A stretch of DNA of 64,000 bases, taken from the NCBI GenBank assembly GCA_963806495.1, contig CAWDYA010000001.1:180030-244029 (forward strand). The letters are read 5' to 3'. Position 1 is the first letter of the stretch. Each line of letters opens with the position of its first letter. Positions 5,413 through 32,003 of the stretch are shown here, in pieces. The position numbers were made by a program, and so were the translations under genes. The notes beneath the pieces were generated by a model. That model was given only the letters and a program-made list of their open reading frames with translations, was not told the origin of the DNA and searched no databases. This DNA is from an uncultured Acidobacteriota bacterium (GTDB lineage Bacteria; Acidobacteriota; Polarisedimenticolia; JACPZX01; DASXTC01).

Positions 5413-5422
5413 GGCCGCCTCC

Positions 5423-15626: not shown

Positions 15627-16352
15627 ATGAGCACCGAAGGCGGCAGGATGGAGGTCGACGTCCACGAGCGCAGCGTCGCTCGCAACGGCGTCAAGCAGGA
15701 GATCAACGAACGGCTGTTCATGCAGCTCCTCGTCTTCACGGGGGCCGCGGACGAGGCCAGCCTGACCCAGGCCGCCGAAGCGGCCGGCATGGATCTGGTG
15801 CTTTACCGCGATCTGTCCGACCCCCGTGGCGTGGGGCTGCTGGCGATGAGCGTCGACCCGGCGCACTTCGTCACGCGCGTGCGTGACTTCGTCAACAGCG
15901 GCTCGTTCGCCTCGCTGCGGCCCCGCACCGAGCTCACGATGACCGGCCGCAGCTACGCGATCGGGTACGAGCCCGACCTGAAGGACTGGCTGATCGAGAA
16001 GCCCCGCCGCACGGTGCTCAACCACGAGTGGCCTTGGGCGGTCTGGTACCCGCTGCGCCGCACCGGGTCGTTCGCCTCGCTGGGGCCGCAGGAGCAGCGC
16101 GGCATCCTCGCCGAGCACGCCCGGATCGGTATCGCCTACGGTGAGGCGGATCTCGCGCACGACATCCGACTCGCCTGTCACGGCATCGACGCAGCCGACA
16201 ACGAGTTCGTCATCGGCCTGGTGGGGAGCCATCTGCACCCGCTGTCGCACCTGGTGCAGACCATGCGCAAGACGCGGCAGACCTCGGAGTACATTCAGTC
16301 CATGGGGCCATTCTTCGTGGGGCATGCCCTGTGGCAGAGCCCCGCGGGCTGA
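15627..16352 (+). CDS. Chlorite dismutase-family heme protein, coproheme decarboxylase (ChdC/HemQ)-like
   Basis: WYPLRR...EQRGILAEH (proximal His)...HGID..DNEFVIG...LVQTMR...GPFFVG. Confidence 0.75.
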   Translation: MSTEGGRMEVDVHERSVARNGVKQEINERLFMQLLVFTGAADEASLTQAAEAAGMDLVLYRDLSDPRGVGLLAMSVDPAHFVTRVRDFVNSGSFASLRPRTELTMTGRSYAIGYEPDLKDWLIEKPRRTVLNHEWPWAVWYPLRRTGSFASLGPQEQRGILAEHARIGIAYGEADLAHDIRLACHGIDAADNEFVIGLVGSHLHPLSHLVQTMRKTRQTSEYIQSMGPFFVGHALWQSPAG

Positions 16353-18712
16353 TCCGAAGCCGTCTCGCCCTGATCCTGTTCTGCCTGGCGCCGGCCGCGC
16401 CGGCCGTCACATCCCATGCCCTCGCGGACGAGGCGGCCGCTACGCGGCCGCCCGTGGACATCCCCCGCGCTACCGGCCCGATCAAGGTCGACGGGGTGCT
16501 CGACGAGCCCGCATGGGCTTCGGCGCTCGAGCTGCACATCCCGTTCGAGGTCTCCCCGGCTGACAACATCCCCGCCCGCGTGCTCACCGACGTCCGTCTC
16601 ACCTACGATGACTCGGGCTTCTATCTGGCTTTTGTGGCCCACGACCCCGACCCGGATCGTATCCGGGCCCGGATCAGCGACCGCGACACAGCGTTCCAGG
16701 ACGACTTCGTGGGCGTTGCGCTCGATACCTTCAACGACGGCCGGAGGGGATTCGAGTTCTTCGTCAACCCGCTCGGCGTGCAGATGGACCTGACGATCGA
16801 CGACCTGGGAAACGGCGAGGACGAGTCGTGGGACGCTATCTGGGATTCGGCGGGGCGGCTGACGCCCGACGGTTACGTCGTCGAGATGTCGCTGCCGTAC
16901 ACCTCGCTTCGGTTCCAGCGGGGCGGGGGCAGCCAGATCTGGGGGCTGGATCTGGTGCGGGTGTATCCGCGGGATCGTCGCTACATCCTCGGGATGAACC
17001 GGCGCGACCCGAAGATCTCCTGCTATCTGTGCCAGATCGGCAAGGTGTCCGGCTTCGAGGGGGCCGAGCCCGGCCTGAACCTCGAGGTCACGCCGACGCT
17101 GACCGCGACGCGCACCGACACCACACCGACGGAACAGGACGCCGGTGTCGCCGTGGGCCCGGACTATGCCGGCGATCGGTATATCGGGGAGGGGCTCGTC
17201 CACGGCGATCCCGACTACGAGCTGGGGGTGACCGGGCGATGGGGCATGACGCCCAACCTGACGCTGTCCGGGACGATCAACCCCGACTTCTCGCAGGTCG
17301 AGGCCGATGCGGCGCAGCTCGACGTCAACGAGCAGTTCAACCTGTTCTACCCGGAGAAGCGGCCGTTCTTTCTCGAGGGCGCCGACTTCTTCACCACGCC
17401 GATCCAGGCGGTCTACACCCGCACCGTCTCCGACCCGTCGTGGGGGGTGAAGCTCACCGGCAAGGAAGGGCGAAACGCCATCGGGGCGTTCGTGTCGCGC
17501 GACGATCAGACCAACCTGATCTTCCCCGGCAGCCAGGGCTCGTCTTCCGGCTCGATCGCCGATCAGTCGACGGTGGGCGTCTTCCGGTACCGGCGCGACA
17601 TCGGGAAGAGCTCCGCGATCGGCGGCCTGGTCACCGTCCGCGAGGGGGACACCGACCGCGAAGGGGACGGCTATCACAACCGTGTCGCGGGAATCGACAC
17701 CCTGCTGCACCCTGCGAAACCGGACACGCTACGTTTCCAGGCGCTCGTCTCGCAGACGAGATATCCCGGGTCGATCGCGGAAGACCCCGACCTGGGACAG
17801 CCGTCCGGCGACTTCGCCGGCCACGCGATCGAGGCCAGCTACACCCACGAGATCCGCGAGTGGTCGGTCTGGACCAACTACGAGGACATCTCGGCCGACT
17901 TCCGCGCTGACCTCGGGTTCGTCCCGCAGGTCGACTACCGCAAGCCGCACGTCGGCTACGAGTACCGGTGGTGGGGCGATCCGAACGACTGGTACCTGCG
18001 CTTCGAAGCGGGCGGCAATTACGGGGAGACGCACGACCAGTCGGGCACGTTGATCGTCAAGGAGCTCGAGACCTGGTACACCTTCCGTGGCGCGGCACAG
18101 TCGTACGCGCGCCTCACCCTGGGGCGCGACGTCAGCGCATACCGGGCCGCCGTCTTCCAGCAGCCGTACTGGGACGTCCGCACCAACTTCCAGCCGGGTG
18201 ACGACGTGGAGGTCGGATTCACCTATGAGCGCGGCAACAAGGTCGACTACTCCTACGTCGACCCGAACCATGCGATGACAGCGCGCGAGGGACGCGGCAC
18301 CCGGATCACGCAGTATCTCGATTACCGCCCCGGGCGCCACGTGACGATGAACCTGAACACCGAGATCCGGAGGCTGGACGGGTCGGGGGGACGATTCTTC
18401 CGGGCGAGCCAGGCGGAGCTGCGGGTGGTCTACCAGATAAACGTCAGGACGTTCGTCCGCGCCATCCTGCAGTACCAGACGCTCAAACGCGACCTGACTC
18501 TCTATCCGGCCTGCGACCCGAACCAGCCGCCATGCGATCTCGCCGCCGAGTCGAACGACCTGTTCACGCAGCTTCTCTTCTCGTACAAGGTCAATCCGCA
18601 GACCGCCGTGTTCGTCGGCTACTCGGACGCCCGCGCCGGAGACATCGACACCCCTCTGACGCTTACCGATCGCACCTATTTCTTCAAGGTCGGCTACGCC
18701 TGGGTGCGTTGA
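16331..18712 (+). CDS. CBM9-like / DUF5916 outer-membrane protein
   Basis: IKVDGVLDEPAW, LDTFND...FFVNPLGVQ, TINPDFSQVEAD, LFYPEKRPFFLEG, C-terminal YFFKVGYAW. Confidence 0.85.
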   Translation: MAEPRGLIRSRLALILFCLAPAAPAVTSHALADEAAATRPPVDIPRATGPIKVDGVLDEPAWASALELHIPFEVSPADNIPARVLTDVRLTYDDSGFYLAFVAHDPDPDRIRARISDRDTAFQDDFVGVALDTFNDGRRGFEFFVNPLGVQMDLTIDDLGNGEDESWDAIWDSAGRLTPDGYVVEMSLPYTSLRFQRGGGSQIWGLDLVRVYPRDRRYILGMNRRDPKISCYLCQIGKVSGFEGAEPGLNLEVTPTLTATRTDTTPTEQDAGVAVGPDYAGDRYIGEGLVHGDPDYELGVTGRWGMTPNLTLSGTINPDFSQVEADAAQLDVNEQFNLFYPEKRPFFLEGADFFTTPIQAVYTRTVSDPSWGVKLTGKEGRNAIGAFVSRDDQTNLIFPGSQGSSSGSIADQSTVGVFRYRRDIGKSSAIGGLVTVREGDTDREGDGYHNRVAGIDTLLHPAKPDTLRFQALVSQTRYPGSIAEDPDLGQPSGDFAGHAIEASYTHEIREWSVWTNYEDISADFRADLGFVPQVDYRKPHVGYEYRWWGDPNDWYLRFEAGGNYGETHDQSGTLIVKELETWYTFRGAAQSYARLTLGRDVSAYRAAVFQQPYWDVRTNFQPGDDVEVGFTYERGNKVDYSYVDPNHAMTAREGRGTRITQYLDYRPGRHVTMNLNTEIRRLDGSGGRFFRASQAELRVVYQINVRTFVRAILQYQTLKRDLTLYPACDPNQPPCDLAAESNDLFTQLLFSYKVNPQTAVFVGYSDARAGDIDTPLTLTDRTYFFKVGYAWVR

Positions 18713-18724
18713 CCCGGGCCGAGC

Positions 18725-21142
18725 TCAGCGGGCGGGGTGCAGCGTCAGAGTGTGGACCGGCGGGCCGGGCAGGAACGGGGTCGGCGCGCCCTGCTCCCAG
18801 GCGGCGTGCCCGTCGCGGTAATGCGGCGACATCGGGTGGCCGCTCTGCCCGCACGGCATGTGGAACAGCCCCATCGCCTCGCGGCCGGGTGAGACCACCA
18901 TCCGCTCGGAGGCGCCGTCCGACGGTGCCTGGAAACGCGGCATATCGGAGTCACCCGGGAGCGGAACAGCCGGCATGTCCAGCCAGCTCGACAGCATCGG
19001 GACGCCGAGGCTGAGCGGATGCCGGATTCGCGTCGTGTTGCGCCGGCCCCAGGTCCGATCCTCCAGGGTGAAGCCGTCCCGTTCCATCGTGTCGATCGTC
19101 GTGTCGACGGCGGCCAGAAGCGCCGTGTCCCACGAGTCGAACTTCGGGTCGAGCAGATGCATCGGCCGCTCGGTCACCAGCCGCCACAACGGCCCTTCCT
19201 CCTGCGCGGTGATCAGATAGTCGAATCGTGGGTCGGCCTTCCTGCATGCCGCCGTGATCGCGTCGAAGGTCTGCCGTGCGAGAAAGTAACGAAACGCCCG
19301 CACCATCCTGTATCCGGCCGAGTCGATCGCGGCGCGCCCGCCCCACGTCTCGACGAGACGGCGCAGGCGGGCCCGCCGCGGGTCGGCGGCCACCGCCGCG
19401 TCGCTCAGCGTCTCGAGCAGCAGATCGTGCCAGCGCGTCAGGAACAGCGCGCGGTCGTCCAGCTGTATGTCCAGCATGTCCCCGGCCGCCGGGCGGTCGA
19501 GACCCCGCAGGTCGTCGCGGATCTGGCCCGCCCGCGCGCCGGACGGATACCCTCCGTCACCGATCGCGGCCAGCATCCAGCCGTCGGCGACCCGGGCGTT
19601 GGCCGTCCAGAGCAGGCCCCCGGGCGGATCCACCAGACGCGGGTATTCCTCCGGATCGAGCCAGCCGTCCCAGCGATGCACGCCGTCGGCCCACGACATC
19701 GGCAGCCGCTCGGCCAGCGGAGCGGGAAACCCCACGCGTCTCGGCATCGCCCCGGCGATCGTCCATCCGATCCGGCCCGTGTCGTCGGCCACCAGCATGT
19801 TCTGCGGCGGGAGCCCGCTCGTCTCCCCCACGGTCAGCGCCTCTTCGAGCGTTCCGGCCGTCGCCATCCGCGACAGCCCGGTGTCGACCGCGCCGTCGTC
19901 GTAGGCGATCCATCGCAGCGCGCGAGGGCGGCCCAGATAGTCCTGGTCGATGATCGGGCCCCAGATCGTGGTCACCACGTCGAGCGTCTCGTTGTCCCCG
20001 CCCGCCACCTGGATCGTCTCGGCGTGATGTTCGAAAGGCAGCGGCCCATCGGGGGCGAGATACCGGTTCGGATCGTCCGGGTCCCGCTCCACGATCACCA
20101 GGTCCACCCAGTCGCCGTAGCTGTTGGTGAACCCCCATGCGACGTGGGTGTTGCTTCCGACCACCACCACCGGAACGCCGGGCAGCGTGACTCCGGTGAC
20201 GGCGCCTATCCCGTCGTCGGTCGACAACGACGCCCGGTACCAGATGTTGGGAACACCCAGCGGCAGATGCATGTCGTTGGCGAGCAGCGCTCCGCCATCG
20301 GCCGTCAGCGCGCCTGCCACCGCCCAGTTGTTGCTGCCGGCCGCTTCCTCCCACCCCCCCTCGTCCCCCGCAGGCGCCGCCTCTGCCTGCACCGTTCCGG
20401 CCGGGACGCCGCTCGACCGCAGGTCGAACACGTCGGGGCCGGGCACCGGGGGCGTCTCGAACGCCTCCCCCACGATCGGCGCGTCCCATTCGGTTCCCGG
20501 CGGCACCAGGAACGCGAACAGCGGCCCGGGCAGCAGGTCGTGCATCAGCCCGACCGCCGAGTCGCGGCTGCCGTCGTTGTCGTCCAGCATCACGAACATC
20601 GACAGGATCGCCAGCACCGAGTCCTCGGCACTCCAGGCAACGGGCTCGGAGCGGATCACCTGGTACGCGAAGGGAGGCGCGCCGAGCGCGGCCAGCCCCG
20701 CGTTGACGCCGTCGGCGTACGCCTGCAACTCGCGCCGGTCATCCTCTGGAAGGCCGTCGAGGATCGCTTCCGCCCGCGCGCGGAACCGGTGCACCCGGTT
20801 GCGCCGGTCGGCGTTCACCAGCCCGGCGCCGAACAGCCCGGCCAGCTCGCCCGCCGCCTGGCGCCGCATCAGGTCCATCTGGAAGAACCGGTTCTGCGCG
20901 TGCAGGAACCCCACCGCCTGCGCCAGGTCGATCCGGTCCGCCGCATGAACCGACGGCACGCCCAGGTCGTCGAACCGGATCGTGACGTCGGCGCCGAGCC
21001 CGGAGACCTCGCGCTCGCCGTCGAGCTGCGGCAGGCTGGCCACGAGTCGGCTCCGTACCCAGAGCCCGCCGGCAAGAAGCAGGATCACCAGAACCCCCGC
21101 TCCGATCGCCAGCCATCTGAGGATACGCCTGACCCGCCCCAT
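18725..21142 (-). CDS. Penicillin acylase / acyl-homoserine-lactone acylase family (S45 Ntn hydrolase)
   Basis: N-terminal TM; GFLHAQNRFFQMDL; beta-chain start GSNNWAV; ANDMHL; PCGQSGHPMSPHY. Confidence 0.92.
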   Translation of the reverse strand: MGRVRRILRWLAIGAGVLVILLLAGGLWVRSRLVASLPQLDGEREVSGLGADVTIRFDDLGVPSVHAADRIDLAQAVGFLHAQNRFFQMDLMRRQAAGELAGLFGAGLVNADRRNRVHRFRARAEAILDGLPEDDRRELQAYADGVNAGLAALGAPPFAYQVIRSEPVAWSAEDSVLAILSMFVMLDDNDGSRDSAVGLMHDLLPGPLFAFLVPPGTEWDAPIVGEAFETPPVPGPDVFDLRSSGVPAGTVQAEAAPAGDEGGWEEAAGSNNWAVAGALTADGGALLANDMHLPLGVPNIWYRASLSTDDGIGAVTGVTLPGVPVVVVGSNTHVAWGFTNSYGDWVDLVIVERDPDDPNRYLAPDGPLPFEHHAETIQVAGGDNETLDVVTTIWGPIIDQDYLGRPRALRWIAYDDGAVDTGLSRMATAGTLEEALTVGETSGLPPQNMLVADDTGRIGWTIAGAMPRRVGFPAPLAERLPMSWADGVHRWDGWLDPEEYPRLVDPPGGLLWTANARVADGWMLAAIGDGGYPSGARAGQIRDDLRGLDRPAAGDMLDIQLDDRALFLTRWHDLLLETLSDAAVAADPRRARLRRLVETWGGRAAIDSAGYRMVRAFRYFLARQTFDAITAACRKADPRFDYLITAQEEGPLWRLVTERPMHLLDPKFDSWDTALLAAVDTTIDTMERDGFTLEDRTWGRRNTTRIRHPLSLGVPMLSSWLDMPAVPLPGDSDMPRFQAPSDGASERMVVSPGREAMGLFHMPCGQSGHPMSPHYRDGHAAWEQGAPTPFLPGPPVHTLTLHPAR

Positions 21143-21231
21143 GCCCCCTCCACCGTTGCGCGTCCTCTTGATACCCGATGCGCGGCGGGCGGTCAAGCGA
21201 TTCCCTCCTCCCGTGGGTTATCCTTCGCTTC

Positions 21232-23968
21232 ATGCTGGCTCATCGTCTCATCGCCCGGATACAGGAGCTCATCCTGAAACGGCCGGGACGCGTCGTCGCC
21301 GCCTCGTTGCTGCTCACCCTCGTGGCGCTCTGGCTCGGCACGAAGGTGGAATTCAGGACGTCGCGAAGCGACCTGGCTCCGCCCGACGACCCCGAGGAGA
21401 TCCGCTTCGACGCGCTGGTGAAGGAATTCGGCGGCTCGTCGGATTCTGATCGTCACGGTGGAAGCCGAACCGGGTGCAGAGATCCCCGCGGCGCGGCTGC
21501 GGGAGGCGGCCGATACGCTCGCGGCGCAGCTTGCGGCCGATCCGCTCGTCGCCCAGGTGTTCTACAAGGTCGACCTCGACTGGTTCCTCAAACGCGGTCT
21601 GTATCTCGCCCCGCCGTCGACGCTCGAGGGGATCGAACGGGCCGCGGACGAGGATATCGACGCACTCGGTTCGCTGTCGAAGGTCGAAGGGCTCACCGGT
21701 CTGGACGATCTCCTCGCCGCGCGTCTCGAAGCATCGTTCGCTGCCGGGACGGCGGCGCCGGAGGGGGCGGCGCAGGGGGTACGCGCCCTCGTCTCGCTGC
21801 TCGATTTCGAGCGGCGGTTCCTGGAAGACCCCGAAACCCTGCTGCGCTCGATCGGACTCGACGGGAGCAAGCCGCCTCTCCTGGTGCTCGCGGGCGACCG
21901 GCAACAGCTGGCCTCGCGGGGATATCTGTCCACCCGGGACGGGTCGGTGCTGTACATCCTGGTCTCTCCCGAGCGCAACGACGACAGCCTGCCCGCCCTT
22001 CGCGCGCTCATCGACGCCGCGCGGCGGTGCGCGTCGATCGTGACCGCCACCCATCCCGGTGTGCGTGTCTCCTACACCGGCGAGCCGGCCACCACCGTGG
22101 AAGAGATGAACATCGTGCGCCGCGACACCTGGTTCACCTCGGCGGTCGCGGCCACCGGCGTGACGCTGCTCACCCTGCTGGTGTTCCGCTGGAAGAGCCA
22201 TTCTCTCCTGGTGCTGTCGGCGCTGGCCATGGGGATCGCCTGGTCGTTCGGCGCCGTGTATCTCGAGCTGGGATACCTCAACCTGATCACGTCGTCGTTC
22301 ATCTCCACCCTGGTCGGTGTCGGCGTCGCGTACGGTATTCACCCCGTCTCCGAGTACGAGCTGGAAGGGGCCCACACCGGCGACCCGTTGGCCACGGTGC
22401 GTGAGTCGTACCATCGCACGGGCGCCGCGATCTCGACCGGCGCGGTCACCACGGCGGCGGCCTTTTTCGCAATCCTGCTGATGAACTTTCGCGGCTTCTC
22501 GGAGCTGGGGCTGGTGGCGGGCTTCGGGGTGCTGCTCTGCCTGATGGCCTCGCTGGTGACCCTGCCGGCACTCCTGGCCGTCTACGGGCGCTGGCGGCAC
22601 GGCCGCGATCGGGTGCCACGCACCGGCTCGGGCGCCGCGATGGTGGACCGGGTCTGGGGCGAGAAGCTGTCGAGGCTGGTCTGCGCCCGGCCGCGTACGG
22701 TGACCGCGATCGCGCTGCTCGCGACGGTGGGGGCCGCCGCCGGCGCGCGCGGCGTGCAGTTCGACCAGAACATCCTGGACATGCTTCCGCGCGACGCCGA
22801 GTCGGTGAAGCAGCAGCGGCGGATGATCATGGAGTCGAGCCTGTCGCCCGCGTTCACCATCGCGGTGGCCGGCAGCCTCGAGGAGCTGCGCGCGATGCGG
22901 CAGCGCGCCGGAGACGAGCCGACGATCGAGCGGTTCGAGTCGGTGCTGGATTTCCTGCCCGCTGATCCCGAAGCCGCCCGCGAGGCGGTGGCGCGCCTCG
23001 CTCCTCTGCTCGACCGGATCGCCCTGCCCGCCAGCACCGCCCCGGTGCGGCGGGCCGATCTCACCCGCGCCCTGACCCGGCTGGAGACCGCTCTGACCGA
23101 CGCGTCCGACGCCGCCTTCGGCGCGGGGCTGGCGGACCTGGCGGGGCCTCTGGAGGAGGCCCGCGCGGCTGCCGAGGCCGCGCGGCTCGCGGCAGGCAAA
23201 GCCCCCGCAGGGATGGAGAGCCGATGGGACGAGGGCCAGCGGCGCCTGCTCGCATTCGCCCACGAGGCGCTGTCGGCGCTGCGCGAGGCCGCCGCCACCC
23301 CTCCCCCGACGATCGAGACGCTGCCCGACGCCGTCCGCAAGCGGCTGATCACCCGCGACGGCCGGTTCCTGGCGTTCATGCACCCGCACGGCGACATGTT
23401 CGCCCCCGGCTTTCTGGGGCCGTACGTGGCGGCGTCGAAGCGTGTCTCGGACACCAGCACCGGGTTTCCGATCCTGTTTCACCTGATGACGAACCGGATC
23501 ACGTCGGGGTTCGTCCGTGCCGTGGCGGTCGGGTCGGTGCTTGTTTTCCTGATCCTGCTGGCGGACTACCGCAATCTGCGCGAGACTCTGATGGCGCTGG
23601 CCCCGCTCGTGATGGGCGTCATCTGGATGCTGGGAGCGATGAGACTGCTCGGGATCTCCTACAATTTCGCCAACCTGATCGCGGTGCCACTGATCATCGG
23701 CGTCGGGATCGACAACGGGGTCCACATCGTGCACCGGATGCGGTTCGAGGGACGCGACGGGATGTCGGTGGTGCTGCGTCACACGGGACGTGCGATCCTG
23801 ATCGCGGGGCTCACCACCATGATCGGGTTCGGCAGCCTGGCGCTCGCCTCCCACCGGGGGCTCGCCAGCCTCGGGATGGTGCTGCTGGTCGGAGTCGGCT
23901 CGTGCGTGACCACGGCGATGCTGGTCCTGCCCAACATGCTCGTGGCGTTCGGTCTGGCCCGGAGATGA
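21232..23968 (+). CDS. HpnN/MMPL-type RND lipid transporter (BstA-like); +1 frameshift near 21444
   Basis: N-terminal TM1 in the 21178 frame, remainder in the 21458 frame; removing one T from GATTC gives SSDLIVTVE. Two RND TM repeats: YTGEPA, GVGVAYGIH, GVGIDNGVH, TTMIGFGSL. Confidence 0.88.
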
Positions 23969-23978
23969 GAGGTTGAAG

Positions 23979-24836
23979 ATGAGAATCCGCATCCTGCTCC
24001 TGCTGCTCGCGCTGGCGACGGTCGCGCTGCCCGCCGCCACCGCCGTGACGCTGGTGGTCTGCTCTCCCGGGTCGCCGGGCAACACGGCACAGGCTCAGCC
24101 CACCATGGACGCGTTCGCCGCCGACGCCGCCGCGGCCGCCGGCTGGCCCGCCTCACGCCTCGGCGCCGTCTACTTCGAGGCAGAAAAGGCGGGGCTCGAC
24201 CGGCTGGCGCAGGACGATGCCGCACTGGCGATGGTGCCGCTGTCTTTCTACGTCGAGCACGGTGCGGCGCTGAAGCTGGATCCGATCCTGTCGGTGGTGC
24301 CCGAGGGCGGGGACGCGGGCGGCAAGGGCGAAGTCTGGTCGCTCGTCGCGCACAAGGGGGACGTGACCGGTCCCGGGTCCCTGGCCGGCTGGCAGATCAC
24401 CGGGGCGCCCGGTTACGCCGAGGCCTACGTCCGGCACGTGCTGCTCGCCGGGTTCGGCCCCCTGCCCGACGGCGTCACGATCACGTTCGCCCCGCGCGTG
24501 CTGAGCGCCCTGCGCAAGGCGGCCGCGGGCGAGAAGGTCGCGGCGCTGCTGGACCCCGCCGAGGTGAAAGCGCTCGGCTCGCTGCCGTTCGGATCCGACC
24601 TCGAGGTGGTGTTCCGATCCCGCCCGCTGCCGGCCGCCCTGCTGTGCGTCGTCGGCGGCAGGGTCGACCCGAAGGCCGCCGCGGCACTGGCGGACGGACT
24701 GCGAAAGATGAATGGCACCGAAGCGGGTCGGACGGCGCTCACCTCGATCCGCGTGGAGCGGTTCGCCCCGGTGGACGATGCGGCGCTCGAGGCCGTCCTC
24801 TCCGAGGTCCGCGCCGGGCAGGGCCCCGCCCGGTGA
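23979..24836 (+). CDS. Periplasmic phosphonate-type substrate-binding-fold protein (BstB-like)
   Basis: Signal peptide; LVVCSPGSPGNTAQAQPTMDAFA; PhnD-like C-terminus (GLRKMNGTEAGRTALTSIRVERF); no ABC permease or ATPase nearby. Confidence 0.7.
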   Translation: MRIRILLLLLALATVALPAATAVTLVVCSPGSPGNTAQAQPTMDAFAADAAAAAGWPASRLGAVYFEAEKAGLDRLAQDDAALAMVPLSFYVEHGAALKLDPILSVVPEGGDAGGKGEVWSLVAHKGDVTGPGSLAGWQITGAPGYAEAYVRHVLLAGFGPLPDGVTITFAPRVLSALRKAAAGEKVAALLDPAEVKALGSLPFGSDLEVVFRSRPLPAALLCVVGGRVDPKAAAALADGLRKMNGTEAGRTALTSIRVERFAPVDDAALEAVLSEVRAGQGPAR

Positions 24837-25648
24837 GGGCGGCCCTGACACTGGGTCTTGCGCTTTGTGCTCTCTGTGCCGGATGCGCCCGCGCCCTGCA
24901 CGAGCCGCCGCCGTTGTCGGATCTCGGGGGCGCCTCGCCTTCCGCCGGCGCCACACCCGCGGACGTCGACGGCCTGCTCGCACGCGCCGGCGATCTCTTC
25001 GCCCGCCGCGTGCCGGATGACGCGCGCCGGGCGGCGCAGGTGTATCTCCAGGCCGCACGCGCCGACGCGGCCCGCACCGATGGCCTCATCGGCGCCGTGC
25101 GCGTGTATGCGTGGCTCGTGGAGCACGAGACCGACGCCGCCGCGCGCGCCGACGACGCCACCACCGCGGTGCAGACGGCGCAGTGGTGCGAGCGGATCGA
25201 CCCCCTCAGCGCCGCGTGCGCCTACTGGCTCGGCGCCGCGCTGGGTCTTCAGGCGCGCGAGAAGCGATCTACCGGGCTGGACGCGCTGCCGCTCATCGAG
25301 AAGGCGTTCCAGCGGGCCGCGGCCGCCGACCCGGACCTCGAGCAGGGCGGCCCCGACCGCGCGCTGGCGCTGCTCTATCTGCGCGCCCCCGGTTGGCCGA
25401 GCGGTCCGGGCGATCCCGACCTGGGTCTGGACCACGCCCGCCGGGCGGTCGAGCGCGCTCCCGACTACCCGCCCAACCTGCTGGCGCTGGCCGAGGCGCT
25501 CGAGGCCACCGGTGACACGGCGCAGGCGCGCGAGACGCTGGGCCACGCCCTCGACGCGGCAGAGGGTCTGGCGGCAGCCGGGGATCCGGACGCCGGCGAG
25601 TGGGCAGAGGAGGCGCAAAACGCCCTGCACCGTCTTGGGGATCGATGA
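24833..25648 (+). CDS. TPR/TatT-like lipoprotein (BstC-like)
   Basis: GTGA overlap with the upstream stop; lipobox LCAGC; CAYWLGAALG, GGPDRALALLYLRAPGWP, PDYPPNLLALAEAL. Confidence 0.75.
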   Translation: MRAALTLGLALCALCAGCARALHEPPPLSDLGGASPSAGATPADVDGLLARAGDLFARRVPDDARRAAQVYLQAARADAARTDGLIGAVRVYAWLVEHETDAAARADDATTAVQTAQWCERIDPLSAACAYWLGAALGLQAREKRSTGLDALPLIEKAFQRAAAADPDLEQGGPDRALALLYLRAPGWPSGPGDPDLGLDHARRAVERAPDYPPNLLALAEALEATGDTAQARETLGHALDAAEGLAAAGDPDAGEWAEEAQNALHRLGDR

Positions 25649-25661
25649 GACTGGCCCGTTT

Positions 25662-26585
25662 CTATCCCGCCCTGTAGACGTCGGTGCCCATGTACTTCAG
25701 CCCCGAGTCGACCATCAGCGTCACGACCGTCGCGCCCGGGCCGAGACGCTGCGCCAGCCGGATCGCGGCGACGACGTTCGCTCCCGAGGATGTGCCGGCG
25801 AAGAGCGCCTCCTCGCGCGCGAGACGCCGCGCCATCGCCTTCGCGTCGCTCGTGCTCACCGGGATGATGTCGTCCACCAGCGCCGGGTCCCACAGCGGCG
25901 GCATGTAGCCGATCCCGACCCCTTCGATCTTGTGCGCTCCCGGCTGCCCGCCGGACAGAACGGCCGACTCGGCCGGCTCGACGACGGCGATCCTCACGCC
26001 CGGCTCGCGCCGCTTCAGCACGGTGGCCACACCGCGTGACGACGCCGCGGTGCCGACGCAGTGGACGAAGGCGTCGACCTCGCCGCCGGTCTGATCCCAG
26101 ATCTCCTCGCCGAGAGGATGATACCCGGCGACGCTGTCGAGGTTGTTGAGCTGGTCGGTCCAGTAGGTGCGCGGCTGCCGGCTGATGACGCGGGCGGCCT
26201 CGATCATGTCCAGGATCAGCTTCCTCGTGGTGAGGCCGCCTTCGCTGGGCACCAGGCTCAGCTCGGCGCCCAGCGCCCTCATCTGGTCCAGCTTGTCCCG
26301 GCTGAAGGCGTCCGAGGTGACGATCTTCAGCCCGTACCCCTTCGCGGCGCAGACGAGGGCCAGCGAGGCCCCGGTGCTGCCGCCGGTATATTCCACCACG
26401 GTGTCGCCCGGCTTCAGGCGGCCGTCCTGCTCCGGCCGCGTAATCACGGCCCGGGCCATCCGGTCCTTGACGCTGCCGGTCGGATTCTCCCACTCCAGCT
26501 TGACGAAGATGGCGGCGCAGCCGGCCGGCACGACCCTTCGGAGCTGCACCAGCGACGTATTGCCGATGGAATCGAGGATATTCAC
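25662..26585 (-). CDS. PLP-dependent cysteine synthase family protein
   Basis: GGAGGAGG RBS then GTG; IGNTSL, KLEWENPTGSVKDR (PLP Lys), HKIEGVG, GTSSGAN. Confidence 0.92.
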   Translation of the reverse strand: MNILDSIGNTSLVQLRRVVPAGCAAIFVKLEWENPTGSVKDRMARAVITRPEQDGRLKPGDTVVEYTGGSTGASLALVCAAKGYGLKIVTSDAFSRDKLDQMRALGAELSLVPSEGGLTTRKLILDMIEAARVISRQPRTYWTDQLNNLDSVAGYHPLGEEIWDQTGGEVDAFVHCVGTAASSRGVATVLKRREPGVRIAVVEPAESAVLSGGQPGAHKIEGVGIGYMPPLWDPALVDDIIPVSTSDAKAMARRLAREEALFAGTSSGANVVAAIRLAQRLGPGATVVTLMVDSGLKYMGTDVYRAG

Positions 26586-26787
26586 CGCGTGGGTCCTCCT
26601 CCAATCCGGCCGAGGTCCCCATTCTATCCCGCCCGCGGCCGCCCCTACACATCCCCGCCCCGGTCCTGTATCCTGAATCCGTCCGGGGCCGTGTCCAGGC
26701 CGTGCCGGGCTGACCTCGTCACCGCTGCCCCGGCACACCCGCGGCGACGCACCGTAACCTTCACCGATCGTCGGGAGACAGCCGCAC

Positions 26788-29023
26788 ATGAAGATCACCT
26801 GGATTCCCGTACTGATACTCTCTCTCGCCGCCGTCACCGCGGCCGGCGCCGATTCCGAGGTTCACAAGACCGCTCCCTCTCCGGCCCGCCAGGTCCGCAT
26901 CGCCGATGTGGATCTCACCAAGCCGCTTCCGCAGCGCCTGACCGACCCGGAGGGGACCACCCGCTGGGATCTGACCGGCGTGACCCTGAAGCCAGGCGCC
27001 GTGGAGACGGTCCGCGAGCAGGGGGGGCGTCTCGTCCTCGAGGACGGCTCCGCCTCGACCCTTTACAGCGACGATGCGGCCGCACCTTCGGCGGACAACG
27101 CCCGCCGGTGGCTCCTGCCCGATCGCTCCCGCGACCGGTTGCGGCCCGGGGCAAGTGACACCTTCGAGATCCTTCAGCAGAATGGAACACGCACCGACCG
27201 TCTCCGTATCGAGACCGAGATCGTGGGGATCGGCTGGGTGCACCTCCCCTCGGGCCCGCACGAGGCGGTGCTGCAGCGCGCGCTCGTATCGCGCAAGCCG
27301 GATGGCGCCCGGGACTCTGGTCCGGACGTCCTGATGCATCGCTGGATCGACCCGCGCGCCGGCGTCCTCGCCGAGATCGCGGGCCCCGCGGCACCGGACG
27401 GCCGCACCCGCCTTTCGGTGACCTCGGCCCGGGTGGTCCAGCAGGTGCTGCTGGGCGCGGCCACGCTCAAGATCTACGTCGACGAGCTGGACCTGCCGAC
27501 CTTCACGGCGGTGGCGTACGGGCGTGACAAGGGGGCCAACACGACGATCTCCTCCCTGGTGCCCGACCCGAACGTGTCGACGATGGGGGATCTGATCGCG
27601 CTGGACACCTGGGACTTCTCGGCCAACAACACCGGCGCCGAGATCGCCTCGACGAGCACCTTCGTCGACCCTAACGAGACCTGCAACGTGAACAGTTGCG
27701 GCTACAGCTTTCCGGGAGCCGAGCTGGATCGCGAGGACAAGAACTTCGACGCTCCCGACCCGAACAACCTGGTCAAAGTCAACACCGTGACCGAGCAGGA
27801 GGTGCGCGCATCCGACCTGACGATCTGGCTCAGGGCCGGCTCGCAGAACGAGGGGAAGGCCGGCGGCTTCGGCAACGCGGGCGGCGAGACCCGTTTCTGC
27901 TATGTCGCCGATCCGAACACTCCCCGCAACCAGGTGCCGCTGTGGCGCTTCCCCAACCAGGACGCCGGCGGCTGGTACATGCAGGCGGGCGACCCGGTTT
28001 GGGCCGGGGGGCCGGGCGCGACCTGCCAGCAGACCCTGTTCAACGAGGTCTGCGGCGGAGGCGGGCTGATTCCGAAGCTCTACGCCAAGGCCTGCGGCAA
28101 CCACACCGGCACCCAGTTCGGCGAGGTCGTCAAGGGAGGCGTGGTGATCCTGCCCTCCGGTCACACCTTCAACGCGCTGCTGGTGCGTTACACCGCCGAC
28201 TTCTGCGTCTACATCGCCTCCGGGTGCGCCGACTTCTTCAAGCAGGCGGAGGTGCGCCAGGTCAACTACCTGTGGCAGGTGCCTTACCTCGGAACCGTGA
28301 CCCGGCTGGAGTCGGCCCAGCTCGTGCCTGATCTCACGTCATACACGACGCTGGCCGACACCGACATCAAGTTCGGGCTCTTCCCGCCGCGCACCATCAG
28401 CGTGACCGGATCGACCGACAATTCGGTCAGCATCTCCTGGGACCCGGGTCTGGACACACATCGCATCAACGACTACCACGTCTACTGGGATACCGATACG
28501 GGCGGCGGCTCGAGCTATGCATTCGACGACTTCTGCAACACGGGCAGCGTAACCTGCTCGGGGACCACGGCCACCATTTCGGGGCTGAGCCCATCGACCA
28601 CCTACTACATTACGGTTACCTCCGTGTCCGACTACACCGATCCCTCGACCGGCGTCACGACTCGGTACGAGAGCCTGTTGTACCCGACGCAGGTGTCGGG
28701 CGATCCGTCATTCGTATACCCGATCGAGGTGCAGGCGACGACAACCGGTGGCGCCTGCATCCCGACCGCCGAGGTGACCGGTGTGGATATCACCGACGCC
28801 GGTGGCGGAGACATTCAGAATCTGCTGGGACACCGTGAGCGATCCCTGCCTGACCGGCTACGAGGTGCTCGGCTCGACGACGCCCGACTCCGATGCGGGG
28901 TTCTCGCCGGTGGCCGACGTCGGGCTGACGAGCTGCTGGACCGGGAGCACGACGGACGGATATTTCCTGGTCACGGCACGAGGCACCGGCGGCAACGGGC
29001 CCTGGGGACACTTCGGTCATTGA
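26788..29023 (+). CDS. Secreted protein with a duplicated beta-domain, an FN3 domain and a C-terminal domain; +1 frameshift near 28819
   Basis: Signal peptide; FN3 (SVSISWD...YHVYW...ATISGLSPSTTYYITVTS); removing one A from GAATC joins to ICWDTVSDPC...YFLVTARG. Confidence 0.75.
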
Positions 29024-29039
29024 CCCGGAGACACGTGCG

Positions 29040-32003
29040 GTGAGATCGCCGAGGATCCGACGAGCGCTGGCATTCTGCGGGCTGTTCGCCGTGCTGGCCC
29101 TCGCCACCGCGCGTCCCGCCGCTGCCCAGTCCACCACCGCGTCGCTCGCCGGCACGGTGCGCGACGCCGGCGGCCATCCGATTCCGGGCGCCCGCGTCGA
29201 GGCGGTCTCCGAAGCCACGGGGGTAATCCGCACCGGGGTGACCGACGCGCAGGGGCGGTACCGGATCGATTCGCTGCCACCCGGCGTCTGGACGGTGGTG
29301 GCACGGCCGGCCGGGGCCTCGGAGGCCAGGCTGGCCGAGGCGCGCACCCTGCTCCTGCGTCTGCAGCAGACCGCGGTCGCCGACTTCACGGCGGGTGCGG
29401 TGCACACCGAGAGGGTCGAGGTGAACGCCCAGGCCTCCCTGATCGACACCTCGCGCATCGGCGGCGAGCTGCGGATCGACGGAGGCCAGGTCGAGGATCT
29501 CCCCCTCGCGGGCAGACAGTTCACCGACCTCGCGCTCCTCGACTCTTCCGTCTATGCTGCGCCGGCAGGCGACTTCTACGGCGAGCACGGGTCGGTCTTC
29601 GTCGTGAACGGCCAGTCGGGACGCTCCAATTCGTTCCTGCTCGACGGTCTGGACAACAACGATCTGTCGAGCAATACCGCCCCGAACTCGTTCGTCACGG
29701 CGCAGGCGATCCGCGAGTTCACGGTCCTGACCAACCAGTACGCACCCGAGTTCGGTCGCGCCAGCGGCGGCATCCTCAACATCGTCACGGAGCGCGGCAG
29801 CAACGAGACCACGACCGGCGGGTTCCTGCAGGGGGCGATCGGCGCCCTCAACCCCGCGGGAGAGTTCGTCTCCTCGCTGCCCGGCAGCAATGGAGAGGAC
29901 GACACCAGCGACCGGCTCGAGGCCGGCTTCAAGATTGGCGGTCCGCTGCGCAAGGACAAGGCGACCTACTTTCTCGCCTACGAGCACCAGCAATCCGATC
30001 TGGTCACTCCCTACACCGGCGTGGGGCGCAACGGCGTCGCCGGAGGATGGGTCATGGCTCCGGGCCGCGACGACAACGTCTTCCTGAGGACCGATTTCAA
30101 CCTCGGGTCGGGACAGTTCCTGATGGCGCGCCTCTCCGCGGACGATTCCACCACGCACGATGTCAACGTCGGCGGCAACATCACGCCCGAGTCCGGCTTC
30201 CTGCTCAACCAGCGGGATATCTCGGCCGCCGCCACCCTCACCTCGGTGCTCTCCCCGACGGTGGTCAACGAGGCCCGGCTGCTCGTGGCGCGGTCCTCGT
30301 TCGACCAGACGGCCAACTCGGATCGGCCCGGAGTGGAGCGGCCCTCGGGAACCTTCGGGGGGAACAACCTCAACCTGCAGAACAGGGAGGAGGACCGCTT
30401 CCAGCTCGTCGAGAACATCACCTGGCAGAGCGGGCTGCATACGCTGAAAGCCGGCGTCGACCTCCTGCACTCGCGCACGCGGGTTTCCACCCGATTCAAT
30501 CCCAACGGCAACTTCCTGTACGGGACCGACGCGCCGTTCGAGCCGGGCGACTGCGGCAACTATGTCACGGACCCCAACTCCACGCTCGACCCGATGTGCA
30601 TCGGGATCCCTGGCGTGGACGACGACGGCGACGGCGTCATCGACGAGGTGGGTCAGATCGACACCTTCCCCACCGTGTTCCAGCTCATCGAGGGGTATCC
30701 GCACGCCTCGATCGACGACACCCGCGCCTCGGTCTTCGTGCAGGACACCTGGCAATCCACCCCGGGCTTCCAGCTCAACTACGGCCTGCGGTACGACGTC
30801 AGCACCTTCACGCTGCCGGCCGACACCAGCGTCCCCTCGTTCATCCCGAACGGTGGCGCCGGGCGCGACACCAACAACATCGCCCCGCGGTTCGGCTTCA
30901 CCTGGGATCCGCGGCGTGACGGCCGGTACGTGGTGCGCGGCGGCGCGGGTCTGTTCTACGACAAGATCGCACTCGGGTTTCCCGCCGTGGCGGCGATCAC
31001 CTCGGGAACACAGATCGGGCTGATCTTCCCGCAGGGACAGGGCCTCGAGATCACCGAGGACGTGGTCGAGCAGTACGGCATCGACGCCATCAAGGTGGGT
31101 CTCGTGTTCCCCCCGGAGCTGACCCTGCGCTTCTCCACCGGCACGCGTCTCGACACTCCGTTCACCGAGCAGTACAGCCTCGGGATGGAGCACGCCGCCG
31201 GCAAGCACGGCGTCTGGAGCGCCACCGCCACGCGGGCGCTCGGGCACAATCTGGTGCTGCTGCGCGACCTCAATCCGGTCGTGGCCACCGACTCGTCCGG
31301 CGTTCCGATCCACCGCGACGACACGGTCGGCTCGATCGCTGCGATCGTGACCGAGGGGCGGAGCTGGTACAGCGGCCTGGCCCTGGATTGGAAGTGGCGC
31401 TCCGGCGATGTGTGGTACTCGGCCTCCTACACCTGGTCGAAAGCGATCGACATGGGGCCCGACCCGCTCAAGGGCGGCATCTCGCTGCCCGACAACTCGG
31501 ACGATCTGAGCGAAGAGCGGGGCCGCTCCGACTCGGACCGACGGCATCGGTTCGTCTTCTCGGGGTCGGCACCGCTGCCCGGCCTGGGGCTGCGTGCCTC
31601 GGGCGTGATCCACCTCGCCTCAGGGATCCCATTCAACGTCACCACCGGAAGCGACGAGAACCTCGACGGGATCACCACGGACCGGCCGAAAGGTGTGGGG
31701 CGCAACACCGGCGCCGCGACCAGCCTCAGGCCGGTGAACGAGCTGCGGCAGGCCGCCGGGCTCAAGCCGGTGCACTCCCTGAGCGAGCCGACCTATTTCC
31801 AGGTCGACGTGCGGCTCTCGCGGCCGTTCGCCTTCCACGGCGAGAAGGGAGGCGGCGAGATCTTCCTGCAGGTGTTCAACATCCTCGATCGGTTCAACGC
31901 TGGGCTGATCGAGGGCGTCGCCACGTCGAGCCGGTTCGGCGAGCCGGTGAGCCAGGCGGGCCCGCCCCGCACGCTGGAGCTGGGGCTCAAGCTGGCGTTC
32001 TGA
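29040..32003 (+). CDS. TonB-dependent receptor (Oar-like, with carboxypeptidase-regulatory-like N-domain)
   Basis: LAGTVRDAGGHPIPGARV, LPLAGRQFTDL, YAPEFGRASGG, NNIAPRFGFTWD, C-terminal PRTLELGLKLAF. Confidence 0.93.
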   Translation: MRSPRIRRALAFCGLFAVLALATARPAAAQSTTASLAGTVRDAGGHPIPGARVEAVSEATGVIRTGVTDAQGRYRIDSLPPGVWTVVARPAGASEARLAEARTLLLRLQQTAVADFTAGAVHTERVEVNAQASLIDTSRIGGELRIDGGQVEDLPLAGRQFTDLALLDSSVYAAPAGDFYGEHGSVFVVNGQSGRSNSFLLDGLDNNDLSSNTAPNSFVTAQAIREFTVLTNQYAPEFGRASGGILNIVTERGSNETTTGGFLQGAIGALNPAGEFVSSLPGSNGEDDTSDRLEAGFKIGGPLRKDKATYFLAYEHQQSDLVTPYTGVGRNGVAGGWVMAPGRDDNVFLRTDFNLGSGQFLMARLSADDSTTHDVNVGGNITPESGFLLNQRDISAAATLTSVLSPTVVNEARLLVARSSFDQTANSDRPGVERPSGTFGGNNLNLQNREEDRFQLVENITWQSGLHTLKAGVDLLHSRTRVSTRFNPNGNFLYGTDAPFEPGDCGNYVTDPNSTLDPMCIGIPGVDDDGDGVIDEVGQIDTFPTVFQLIEGYPHASIDDTRASVFVQDTWQSTPGFQLNYGLRYDVSTFTLPADTSVPSFIPNGGAGRDTNNIAPRFGFTWDPRRDGRYVVRGGAGLFYDKIALGFPAVAAITSGTQIGLIFPQGQGLEITEDVVEQYGIDAIKVGLVFPPELTLRFSTGTRLDTPFTEQYSLGMEHAAGKHGVWSATATRALGHNLVLLRDLNPVVATDSSGVPIHRDDTVGSIAAIVTEGRSWYSGLALDWKWRSGDVWYSASYTWSKAIDMGPDPLKGGISLPDNSDDLSEERGRSDSDRRHRFVFSGSAPLPGLGLRASGVIHLASGIPFNVTTGSDENLDGITTDRPKGVGRNTGAATSLRPVNELRQAAGLKPVHSLSEPTYFQVDVRLSRPFAFHGEKGGGEIFLQVFNILDRFNAGLIEGVATSSRFGEPVSQAGPPRTLELGLKLAF

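Follow-up and report, generated by a model that had tools for sequence, protein, structure and literature searches.

A conserved BstABC-like gene module without a sterol link in a probable Polarisedimenticolia-type acidobacterium

The window analysed here, a stretch of 64,000 nucleotides from an uncultured Acidobacteriota bacterium (contig CAWDYA010000001.1), holds at positions 21232-25648 three genes that resemble the bacterial sterol transport system BstABC, and the question it raises is what such a module carries in this organism. The BstABC system of Methylococcus capsulatus (PMC10942540; structures 7T1M and 7T1S; families NF045600, NF045601 and NF045602) is made of the same three protein types: a resistance-nodulation-division (RND) pump, a binding protein of the PhnD fold without an ATP-binding cassette (ABC) partner, and a TatT-like lipoprotein with tetratricopeptide repeats (TPR). 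A first-pass annotation of the sequence took the three genes for homologs of BstA, BstB and BstC, which the NCBIfam and PDB matches described below bear out, and proposed that the organism moves sterols or else that the module carries a different cargo. The module is real, conserved and BstABC-like, and it is without a sterol link; it probably moves some greasy molecule other than a sterol or a hopanoid. The host is probably an acidobacterium, as that annotation also supposed, its relatives being labelled Candidatus Polarisedimenticolia or Acidobacteriota.

Genes were chosen by their third-position G+C, with many spurious open reading frames (ORFs) at high G+C; the G+C content is about 68% across the window. 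The region 21232-25648 is filled by three co-directional genes of the plus strand, which encode the RND pump, the BstB-like protein and the BstC-like protein (the latter two and their homologs are hereafter called B and C). The pump gene ends with the stop codon TGA at 23966-23968 and is followed, after a spacer of 10 bp, by the ATG of gene 2 at 23979. Subsequently, the GTG start of gene 3 at 24833 overlaps the stop codon of gene 2 (24834-24836) in the sequence GTGA. The tight coupling described earlier agrees with these coordinates. A promoter and terminator scan of 20900-27000 is of no use, its output being a single antisense promoter-like site and, inside gene 2, three terminator-like sites that overlap.

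The pump matches the Pfam family MMPL (E-value, E, 1.8e-30), and its best PDB match is HpnN 5khn (E 1.1e-39). It is encoded in two pieces of the plus strand, owing to a frame break that is discussed below: a 5' part of codons 1-71 at 21232-21444, in the frame of the ATG at 21232, which matches positions 3-68 of the BstA model (E 1.9e-7), and a main part of about 840 codons, stop included, at 21446-23968. Scored without its first 70 residues on account of the break, the protein reaches 398 bits with the HpnN model TIGR03480 (cut-off 751.85), its top NCBIfam score, 360.3 bits with the BstA model NF045600 (cut-off 1400) and 229.4 bits with the HpnN model NF052374 (cut-off 1100). The intact ortholog of locus L049 scores 414.7, 402.5 and 230.2 bits with the same models, and the values of 414.7 bits for HpnN and 402.5 bits for BstA place the pump at equal distance from both. 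The earlier assignment to the HpnN type is therefore right as to the family, given the MMPL, HpnN and BstA matches, and fails as to the single open frame, which is broken at 21445. The pump is a member of the HAE3/MMPL superfamily and is referred to as type 1 RND. A type 2 RND found in relatives is 21-32% identical to it, only over the last 105-190 residues, and has the HAE3 subfamily as its best NCBIfam model (123-154 bits); no type 2 RND is found in the genome of this organism.

Gene 2 (23979-24836, plus strand) encodes a periplasmic binding protein of 285 amino acids with a Sec signal peptide and the PhnD fold. Its only meaningful NCBIfam match is BstB (NF045601; E 5.2e-20, 71.8 bits, cut-off 350). 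BstB 7t1m is also its only PDB sequence match at E <=0.01 (E 4.1e-11; three matches at E <=10). The Pfam family Phosphonate-bd (PF12974) matches residues 178-269 with 31.3 bits (cut-off 27). A structure model built from 25 homologs has a predicted local distance difference test score (pLDDT) of 91.8, and Foldseek places 7t1m at the top (E 1.2e-18; template modelling scores by query, TMq, 0.77 and by target, TMt, 0.85; root-mean-square deviation, rmsd, 2.9), at about 21% identity. The proteins ArrX, AioX, PtxB and PhnD are lower, with TMq 0.57-0.69 and rmsd 4.0-6.1. The protein groups with BstB, and not with the binders of phosphonate, phosphite or arsenate, both by sequence and by Foldseek. 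The absence of ABC partners noted for this PhnD-fold protein holds as well: no ABC or tripartite ATP-independent periplasmic (TRAP) membrane component is found among the 10 flanking ORFs scanned (10820-34227). Among the homologs, protein P0207 (871 residues) carries a BstB-like domain at 604-864 behind about 600 residues of no known nature and is a possible fused carrier.

Gene 3 (24833-25648, plus strand) encodes a lipoprotein of 271 amino acids with a lipobox ending at Cys18, a residue shared by 90% or more of the 26 homologs aligned; another two cysteines and the motif GGP.R...APGWP.GPGD are conserved in this set as well. BstC is the best NCBIfam match (NF045602; E 1.3e-26, 93.6 bits, cut-off 350), next to weak TPR matches, and the best PDB match is BstC 7t1s (E 8e-20), followed by 8g52, a TPR_REGION domain-containing protein (E 4.7e-7). 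The description as a TPR/TatT-like lipoprotein alignable with BstC is in keeping with these matches. Among characterised proteins, genes 2 and 3 have no close relatives other than BstB and BstC.

The residues of the ligand sites are partly kept. They were read by hand from HMMER alignments against the residue lists in the available part of PMC10942540, which is the basis of the following comparison. The BstB ligand-site residues Glu118, Tyr120 and Phe150 correspond to E, W and Y in gene 2. In the BstC pocket, seven of the 15 residues are identical in gene 3 (G128, R132, L139, L142, L171, A175 and P176), four keep a hydrophobic or basic character (L145I, M170L, K174R and F208L) and four are changed (V131A, M135R, A138G and L167A). 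A predicted complex of B and C reaches a score of 0.42, the best of three controls 0.00, and the verdict is weak support: 58 of 80 solved complexes attain the mark used, as do 2 of 110 mismatched pairs, and among scores of 0.60 or lower are just 7 passes from the 80 solved complexes, together with both mismatched pairs that pass. Contacts agree between the runs to at least 93%, and the partner has a pLDDT of at least 90.

The trio is syntenic in many genomes. Among 20 loci of the class, C is present in all and is adjacent to B and co-directional in 19; in the remaining one (L022) it lies 3.5 kb off on the opposite strand. Type 1 RND is upstream in seven of these loci and a divergent second RND in six, so that 13 of 20 have an RND. 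In the genomes, matches to this pump at E <=1e-150 with 37-60% identity occur in 14 of the 27 class genomes that bear B, and one more is partial at a contig end. A wider scan with the B alignment, taking one genome per species, gave 403 pattern matches, of which 275 were confirmed and the best 80 loci kept; counts in these 80 loci follow bit-score thresholds, and genes cut by contig ends were dropped. The class set and the wider set share some genomes (identical B rows), and their counts are not additive. C follows B in 71 of the 80 loci and an RND is adjacent in 65, which answers for the synteny of the trio elsewhere. Nine of these pumps are type 1 and co-directional and 56 are type 2 (HAE3-type), 54 of them divergent; the commonest order is a divergent type 2 RND, then B, then C (41 loci).

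The wider loci come from Acidobacteriota labelled Polarisedimenticolia, Thermoanaerobaculia, Vicinamibacterales and Holophagae, and also from Myxococcota (including Anaeromyxobacteraceae), Gammaproteobacteria (including Steroidobacteraceae), Methylomirabilota and others. With a profile, 806 clusters of B-like proteins (50% identity) are found among 1.84 billion representatives at E <=0.001, 563 at E <=1e-10 and 160 at E <=1e-30. In the available part of PMC10942540, BstB and BstC form isolated clusters, of 16 and 13 sequences respectively, and are invariably neighbours of sterol genes in methanotrophs; the B-like family is far larger than these.

The capability of this organism to make a cyclic triterpenoid was searched for in its own genome (4.32 Mb, 11 contigs, 95.96% complete). 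It has no match to the cyclase domains PF13243 and PF13249 of squalene and oxidosqualene cyclases, a first-pass search giving zero candidates, and no squalene epoxidase (PF08491); HpnH has no match above the cut-off, only weak radical-SAM matches. The genes hpnC, hpnD and hpnE stand together on contig 6 at about 252100-255500 (locus L120, 8101-11465), HpnC with 327 bits (cut-off 250), HpnE with 424 bits (cut-off 283) and HpnD in two pieces. By its gene content, squalene should be made by this organism, which has no known enzyme with which to cyclise it. A carotenoid route from squalene was tried and rejected, there being no CrtI-family match above the cut-off in this genome. Because the genome has no cyclase gene, the cargo would not be a self-made sterol or hopanoid. 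The proposal that the organism moves sterols is thus not supported, and its alternative, a different cargo, is favoured.

The relatives offer a similar picture. The class survey covers 41 genomes, this one and G003 included, and a B homolog is present in 27 of them (26 of 40 without G003). PF13243 is matched at E <=0.001 in 18 of the 41, above the Pfam cut-off in 16 and strongly (E <=1e-50) in only seven; the other matches, partial and of about 20-60 bits, may be other repeat proteins of that fold. A strong cyclase occurs in six of the 27 B-bearing genomes and is lacking in 21 (20 of 26 without G003), and 15 of the 27 have no PF13243 match above the cut-off at all. In the wider set, 14 of 45 B-bearing genomes, whose completeness is not given, have a cyclase match at E <=1e-30 and 31 have none. 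Five cyclases were classified, three from the class and two from beside B (L067 and L077; a sixth ORF submitted is HpnH), and all five are squalene-hopene cyclases (TIGR01507, 627-691 bits against a cut-off of 431), far below the cut-off for oxidosqualene cyclase. As a separate observation, hpnD is present in 25 of the 41 class genomes against a strong cyclase in only seven, and squalene without a known downstream enzyme seems to be common in the class.

In some lineages the B-C pair does belong to hopanoid or isoprenoid clusters, and in most it does not. A squalene-hopene cyclase gene (shc) lies within 10 kb of B in 5 of the 80 loci, all of the Anaeromyxobacter type. Locus L077 has the order shc, Caroten_synth, a YdjC and GT21 fusion, RND, B and C. 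In L118, C is followed by an epimerase (3beta-HSD-like), a cyclase and an FMN_dh protein; Dxs is encoded nearby in L097, and in L110 the genes immediately before B are dxs and one for a polyprenyl synthetase. Two details of these loci may be added. In L077, the frame of 891 amino acids at 4955-7627 (plus strand), with its YdjC-like and GT21 domains beside the squalene-hopene cyclase, looks like a fusion of two types of hopanoid tailoring enzyme; YdjC and GT21 are presumably the domain types of the hopanoid enzymes HpnK and HpnI. In the Anaeromyxobacter locus L110, upstream of B-C, the interval that separates the type 2 RND from dxs/ispA (4513-6868) has PAP2 phosphatase-like and weak Omp85-like genes, possible additional envelope components of the system in that version.

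The unit may not end with gene 3. Although the trio lies at 21232-25648, as first annotated, the extent of the unit was drawn too short, since homologs of the next two plus-strand genes follow gene 3 directly in many relatives. These are a secreted protein of about 745 amino acids with one fibronectin type III (fn3) domain (26788-29023; Pfam fn3 E 6.8e-11) and an outer-membrane barrel of 987 amino acids resembling TonB-dependent receptors (29040-32003; PF25183, OMP_b-brl_4, E 4.1e-74; CarboxypepD_reg E 5e-16; a weak Plug match, E 1.9e-4), both probable accessory parts. The fn3 homolog follows C in 12 of the 20 class loci and is present in 17 of the 80 wider loci; the barrel homolog follows the fn3 gene in 9 of 20 and is present in 14 of 80. 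With OMP for the barrel, RND1 for type 1 and RND2 for type 2, the five genes are linked through four orders: RND1>B>C>fn3>OMP, RND1>fn3>OMP>B>C (L047), OMP<fn3<RND2<B>C (L062) and RND2<B>C>fn3>OMP. That the linkage persists through all four speaks for a common function. When the fn3/barrel label is mapped on a quick tree of 101 B rows, 13 changes are required, compared with 26.1 on average after shuffling, which indicates an association that is clustered and not of single origin.

The fn3 protein itself has no NCBIfam family, and the Atlas search gives only hypothetical acidobacterial clusters. In a model of 674 residues, searched with Foldseek and VIA-align, only the fn3 domain (529-657) is matched, plus a weak YmcC-like match (TMt 0.41-0.44). 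No family or fold is found for the beta-rich N-terminal part of about 500 amino acids in NCBIfam, the Atlas or the whole-model fold searches, and by none of the searches is the protein a PopC-like protease.

Comparison with known systems narrows what the module may do. It shares with BstABC the three protein types and the partly kept ligand-site residues mentioned above. It differs in that no osc, smo or sterol-synthesis genes are nearby (sdmA and sdmB were not searched) and that its genome has no cyclase or epoxidase, in that the B-like family is often paired with a different, HAE3-type RND, and in that B-C is linked in the class to the fn3 protein and a barrel of the TonB-dependent type. HpnN (5KHN/5KHS and 6WU0; TIGR03480 and NF052374) is the best solved relative of the pump, and relatives of the Anaeromyxobacter type have B-C and an RND beside shc and hopanoid tailoring genes. 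On the other hand, the pump is below both HpnN cut-offs, its genome is without shc, and the RNDs adjoining shc in relatives are of type 2 (HAE3-like) and not its orthologs. The partners proposed for HpnN in Proteobacteria, in the available part of bioRxiv 10.1101/2025.07.29.667474, are HpnM (MlaC-like), HpnS (MlaA-like) and HpnT (lipocalin-like), none of them BstB- or BstC-like as described there; the available text of this preprint has no occurrence of 'Bst' or 'PhnD'.

The TatT/TRAP systems (Treponema pallidum Tp0956/Tp0957 and Enhygromyxa salina TatT) likewise combine a TPR lipoprotein with a periplasmic binding protein and have a hydrophobic ligand site. The available part of PMC11713862 describes BstC as a distant TatT homolog and names it as an example of the roughly one quarter of TatT homologs that have non-TRAP partners. 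Here, however, the flanks contain no DctQ/M or other TRAP membrane genes, the fold of the binding protein is that of PhnD and not of the DctP type, and the match of gene 3 to BstC is 13 orders of magnitude stronger than that to 8g52. The PhnD-type ABC binding proteins share their fold with gene 2, and ABC permease or ATPase genes are not in the flanks. The barrel can be likened to Oar, a TonB-dependent transporter of Myxococcus xanthus, by its domain build alone: Oar combines a large barrel with a plug and a CarboxypepD_reg domain, and the barrel of the window has CarboxypepD_reg, a weak plug and PF25183. In the literature searched, the link of a barrel to a lipid-carrier pair has no described precedent, and nothing is found on BstB/BstC-like pairs outside sterol producers or on links of such pairs to HpnN-type pumps or TonB-dependent barrels, though supplementary tables may list such homologs.

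The frame break in the pump gene bears on whether the system works. As assembled, the gene is not one open frame, codons 1-71 being followed one frame over by the remainder from 21446. Intact homologs align over the break without loss of a residue (residues 113->114 of L029 and 71->72 of L027), the 5' part aligning with their residues 46-113 and 4-71, and it follows that there is exactly one extra base at 21445 (plus strand), a T inside TCGGATTC. Apart from this base the frames are open, the third-position G+C is 0.89, and the identity to orthologs is 57-60% over 840 residues. The fn3 gene has a +1 frame break near 28810-28820, and hpnD is likewise split into two pieces. In a survey of 118 ORFs from the loci of relatives, the best matches in this genome with at least 40% identity were kept, giving 28 distinct loci, and four of these have a frame change, two in module genes and two in unrelated genes. 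Five breaks of the +1 type in otherwise conserved genes are thus seen, at window positions 21445 and about 28810-28820, at 253776 of contig 6, and at 68847 and 298308 of contig 8. The breaks in the pump gene and in hpnD both fall on the T of the same 8-mer, TCGGATTC. For three of the five breaks a GANTC motif is no more than 6 nt away, as is the case for 4.8% of random genome positions, and at each of these three, dropping one base gives GATC. This pattern would fit a systematic base-calling error at a modified site, and the pump gene probably owes its break to faulty assembly or base calling. The recurrence suggests that indel errors arose systematically in the assembly, and gene calls anywhere in the genome would be affected.

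Taken together with the characterised systems, the trio is rather probably a proton-driven system of lipid trafficking in the envelope, of the BstABC/HpnN kind, with a hydrophobic cargo other than a self-made sterol or hopanoid. By analogy, the RND pump would use the proton gradient and lift a hydrophobic lipid out of the inner membrane. Then, the BstB-like protein would shuttle the lipid across the periplasm and hand it over to the BstC-like lipoprotein, which would accept it at the outer membrane. In the class, the B-C pair may also work with the secreted fn3 protein and the Oar-like barrel encoded downstream. A bolder proposal, which we regard as speculative and rather unlikely, joins the RND, the BstB-like and BstC-like proteins, the fn3 protein and the barrel into one trans-envelope conduit of Polarisedimenticolia-type Acidobacteriota that would carry a non-cyclised lipid to the surface or outside.

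Several observations weigh against lipid trafficking by the trio. No lipid-synthesis gene adjoins it in the window, among the flanking ORFs scanned. All three proteins score far below the NCBI equivalog cut-offs for BstA, BstB and BstC, by 4- to 5-fold, so that a shared cargo cannot be assumed, and the support from the modelled B-C complex is weak. In seven of the 20 class loci neither type of RND is nearby, and a close ortholog of the pump is lacking from about 12 of the 27 class genomes that bear B, from which it follows that the pump is not obligatory for the B-C pair. The barrel is of the TonB-dependent type, usually importing, and would fit uptake better than export. The frame break of the pump gene, if real, would mean an inactive pump. 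Squalene from hpnCDE is one candidate cargo, and a test by co-occurrence does not support it: in the 41 class genomes, B does not track hpnD (both in 15, B alone in 12, hpnD alone in 10 and neither in 4).

The main rival is uptake, in which the barrel and the fn3 protein would import an external hydrophobic molecule (an environmental sterol or hopanoid, a fatty acid or another lipid), C and then B would carry it, and the RND would insert it into the inner membrane. It is considered unlikely. The linkage of B-C to a barrel resembling TonB-dependent receptors and to fn3 in several gene orders speaks for it, as does the lack of any cyclic triterpenoid made by the genome. Its direction is opposed by the pump, all characterised bacterial HAE3/MMPL RND proteins being, to our knowledge, exporters. 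The presence of fn3 and barrel in only 17 and 14 of the 80 wider loci means, moreover, that they are not the core of the system. The TatT-family relatives of BstC bind long-chain fatty acids and belong to uptake systems, according to the available part of PMC11713862; against this, one Oar-type barrel serves protein secretion and not import, Oar being needed for the secretion of the protease PopC in the available part of PMC6434023. Trafficking of a self-made sterol or hopanoid, as the first-pass annotation had it, would place the cyclase gene in the unassembled part of a genome that is 95.96%, not 100%, complete. This agrees with the sterol or hopanoid cargoes of the closest characterised relatives, with hpnCDE for squalene and with the relatives that have B-C beside shc. 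It is nevertheless very improbable in view of the zero cyclase candidates, the missing epoxidase, the lack of an HpnH match above the cut-off, the 21 of 27 class genomes and 31 of 45 wider genomes that bear B without a cyclase at the thresholds given, and the lack of an oxidosqualene cyclase among the five classified.

A different doubt concerns the state of the module, which would be decaying and no longer working in this organism if the breaks in the pump and fn3 genes were real mutations. Two of its five genes carry a +1 frame change as assembled, and a close ortholog of the pump is lost or lacking in about 12 of the 27 class genomes with B. Decay is judged quite unlikely, as frame changes also affect unrelated genes (hpnD and two of 23 other loci examined), the shared 8-mer and the GANTC sites look like systematic base-calling error, and the pump frames are otherwise open, with the third-position G+C and ortholog identity given above. 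That gene 2 encodes an ordinary phosphonate, phosphite or oxyanion binding protein, placed beside the pump incidentally, can hardly be credited. Such a protein would account for the Phosphonate-bd score above its cut-off and for the fold matches to ArrX, AioX, PtxB and PhnD, but BstB is best by sequence and by fold, the PDB sequence search yields no binder of phosphonates or oxyanions even with E <=10 allowed, no ABC genes are nearby, and the B-C-RND linkage holds across phyla, the homologs being flanked by RND and not ABC genes.

The lipid-trafficking module favoured here extends what is known of a small group of proteins. No bacterial sterol-binding folds other than BstB and BstC have had their structures solved so far, and these two are the tip of a much wider family in Acidobacteriota, Myxococcota, Gammaproteobacteria and other phyla. 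This family sits in hopanoid or isoprenoid clusters in some lineages, yet also in many genomes unable to cyclise squalene. Testable questions are which ligand the BstB/BstC-like carriers bind where no sterol or hopanoid exists, whether B-C are the missing periplasmic partners of hopanoid transport outside Proteobacteria, and whether a barrel of the TonB-dependent type can take part in lipid traffic. The homologs in culturable Anaeromyxobacter species, one of which is named from A. diazotrophicus, make such experiments feasible. If true, the five-protein conduit would be a new route of lipid export across the outer membrane, and the BstB/BstC family a general lipid shuttle predating sterol use.

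The immediate flanks of the trio are unrelated to it, with a minus-strand acylase gene upstream and a minus-strand cysteine-synthase-like gene downstream. The acylase, of the penicillin-amidase family (18725-21196; Pfam E 7.1e-148, with a weak PvdQ-like match), is divergent from the pump gene and probably starts near 21142; it has no homolog of at least 80 bits by tblastn in the 20 class loci and the 80 wider loci. Further upstream, a protein of 793 amino acids (16331-18712, plus strand) has CBM9-like and DUF5916 domains, and a homolog with 27% identity lies about 4 kb upstream of B in L060. The cysteine-synthase-like gene (25662-26837, minus strand) encodes a pyridoxal phosphate-dependent type of enzyme (Pfam PALP E 2.3e-66; NCBIfam cysKM 278 bits, below the cut-off) and is an insertion that splits the halves of the module, of which it is not counted as a part; no homolog is found between C and fn3 in the loci of relatives. 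Such a gene adjoins the module also in the gammaproteobacterial locus L097 (6644-7678, minus strand), which may be chance, and in L049 a cysteine-synthase-like gene with 36% identity lies about 7 kb downstream.

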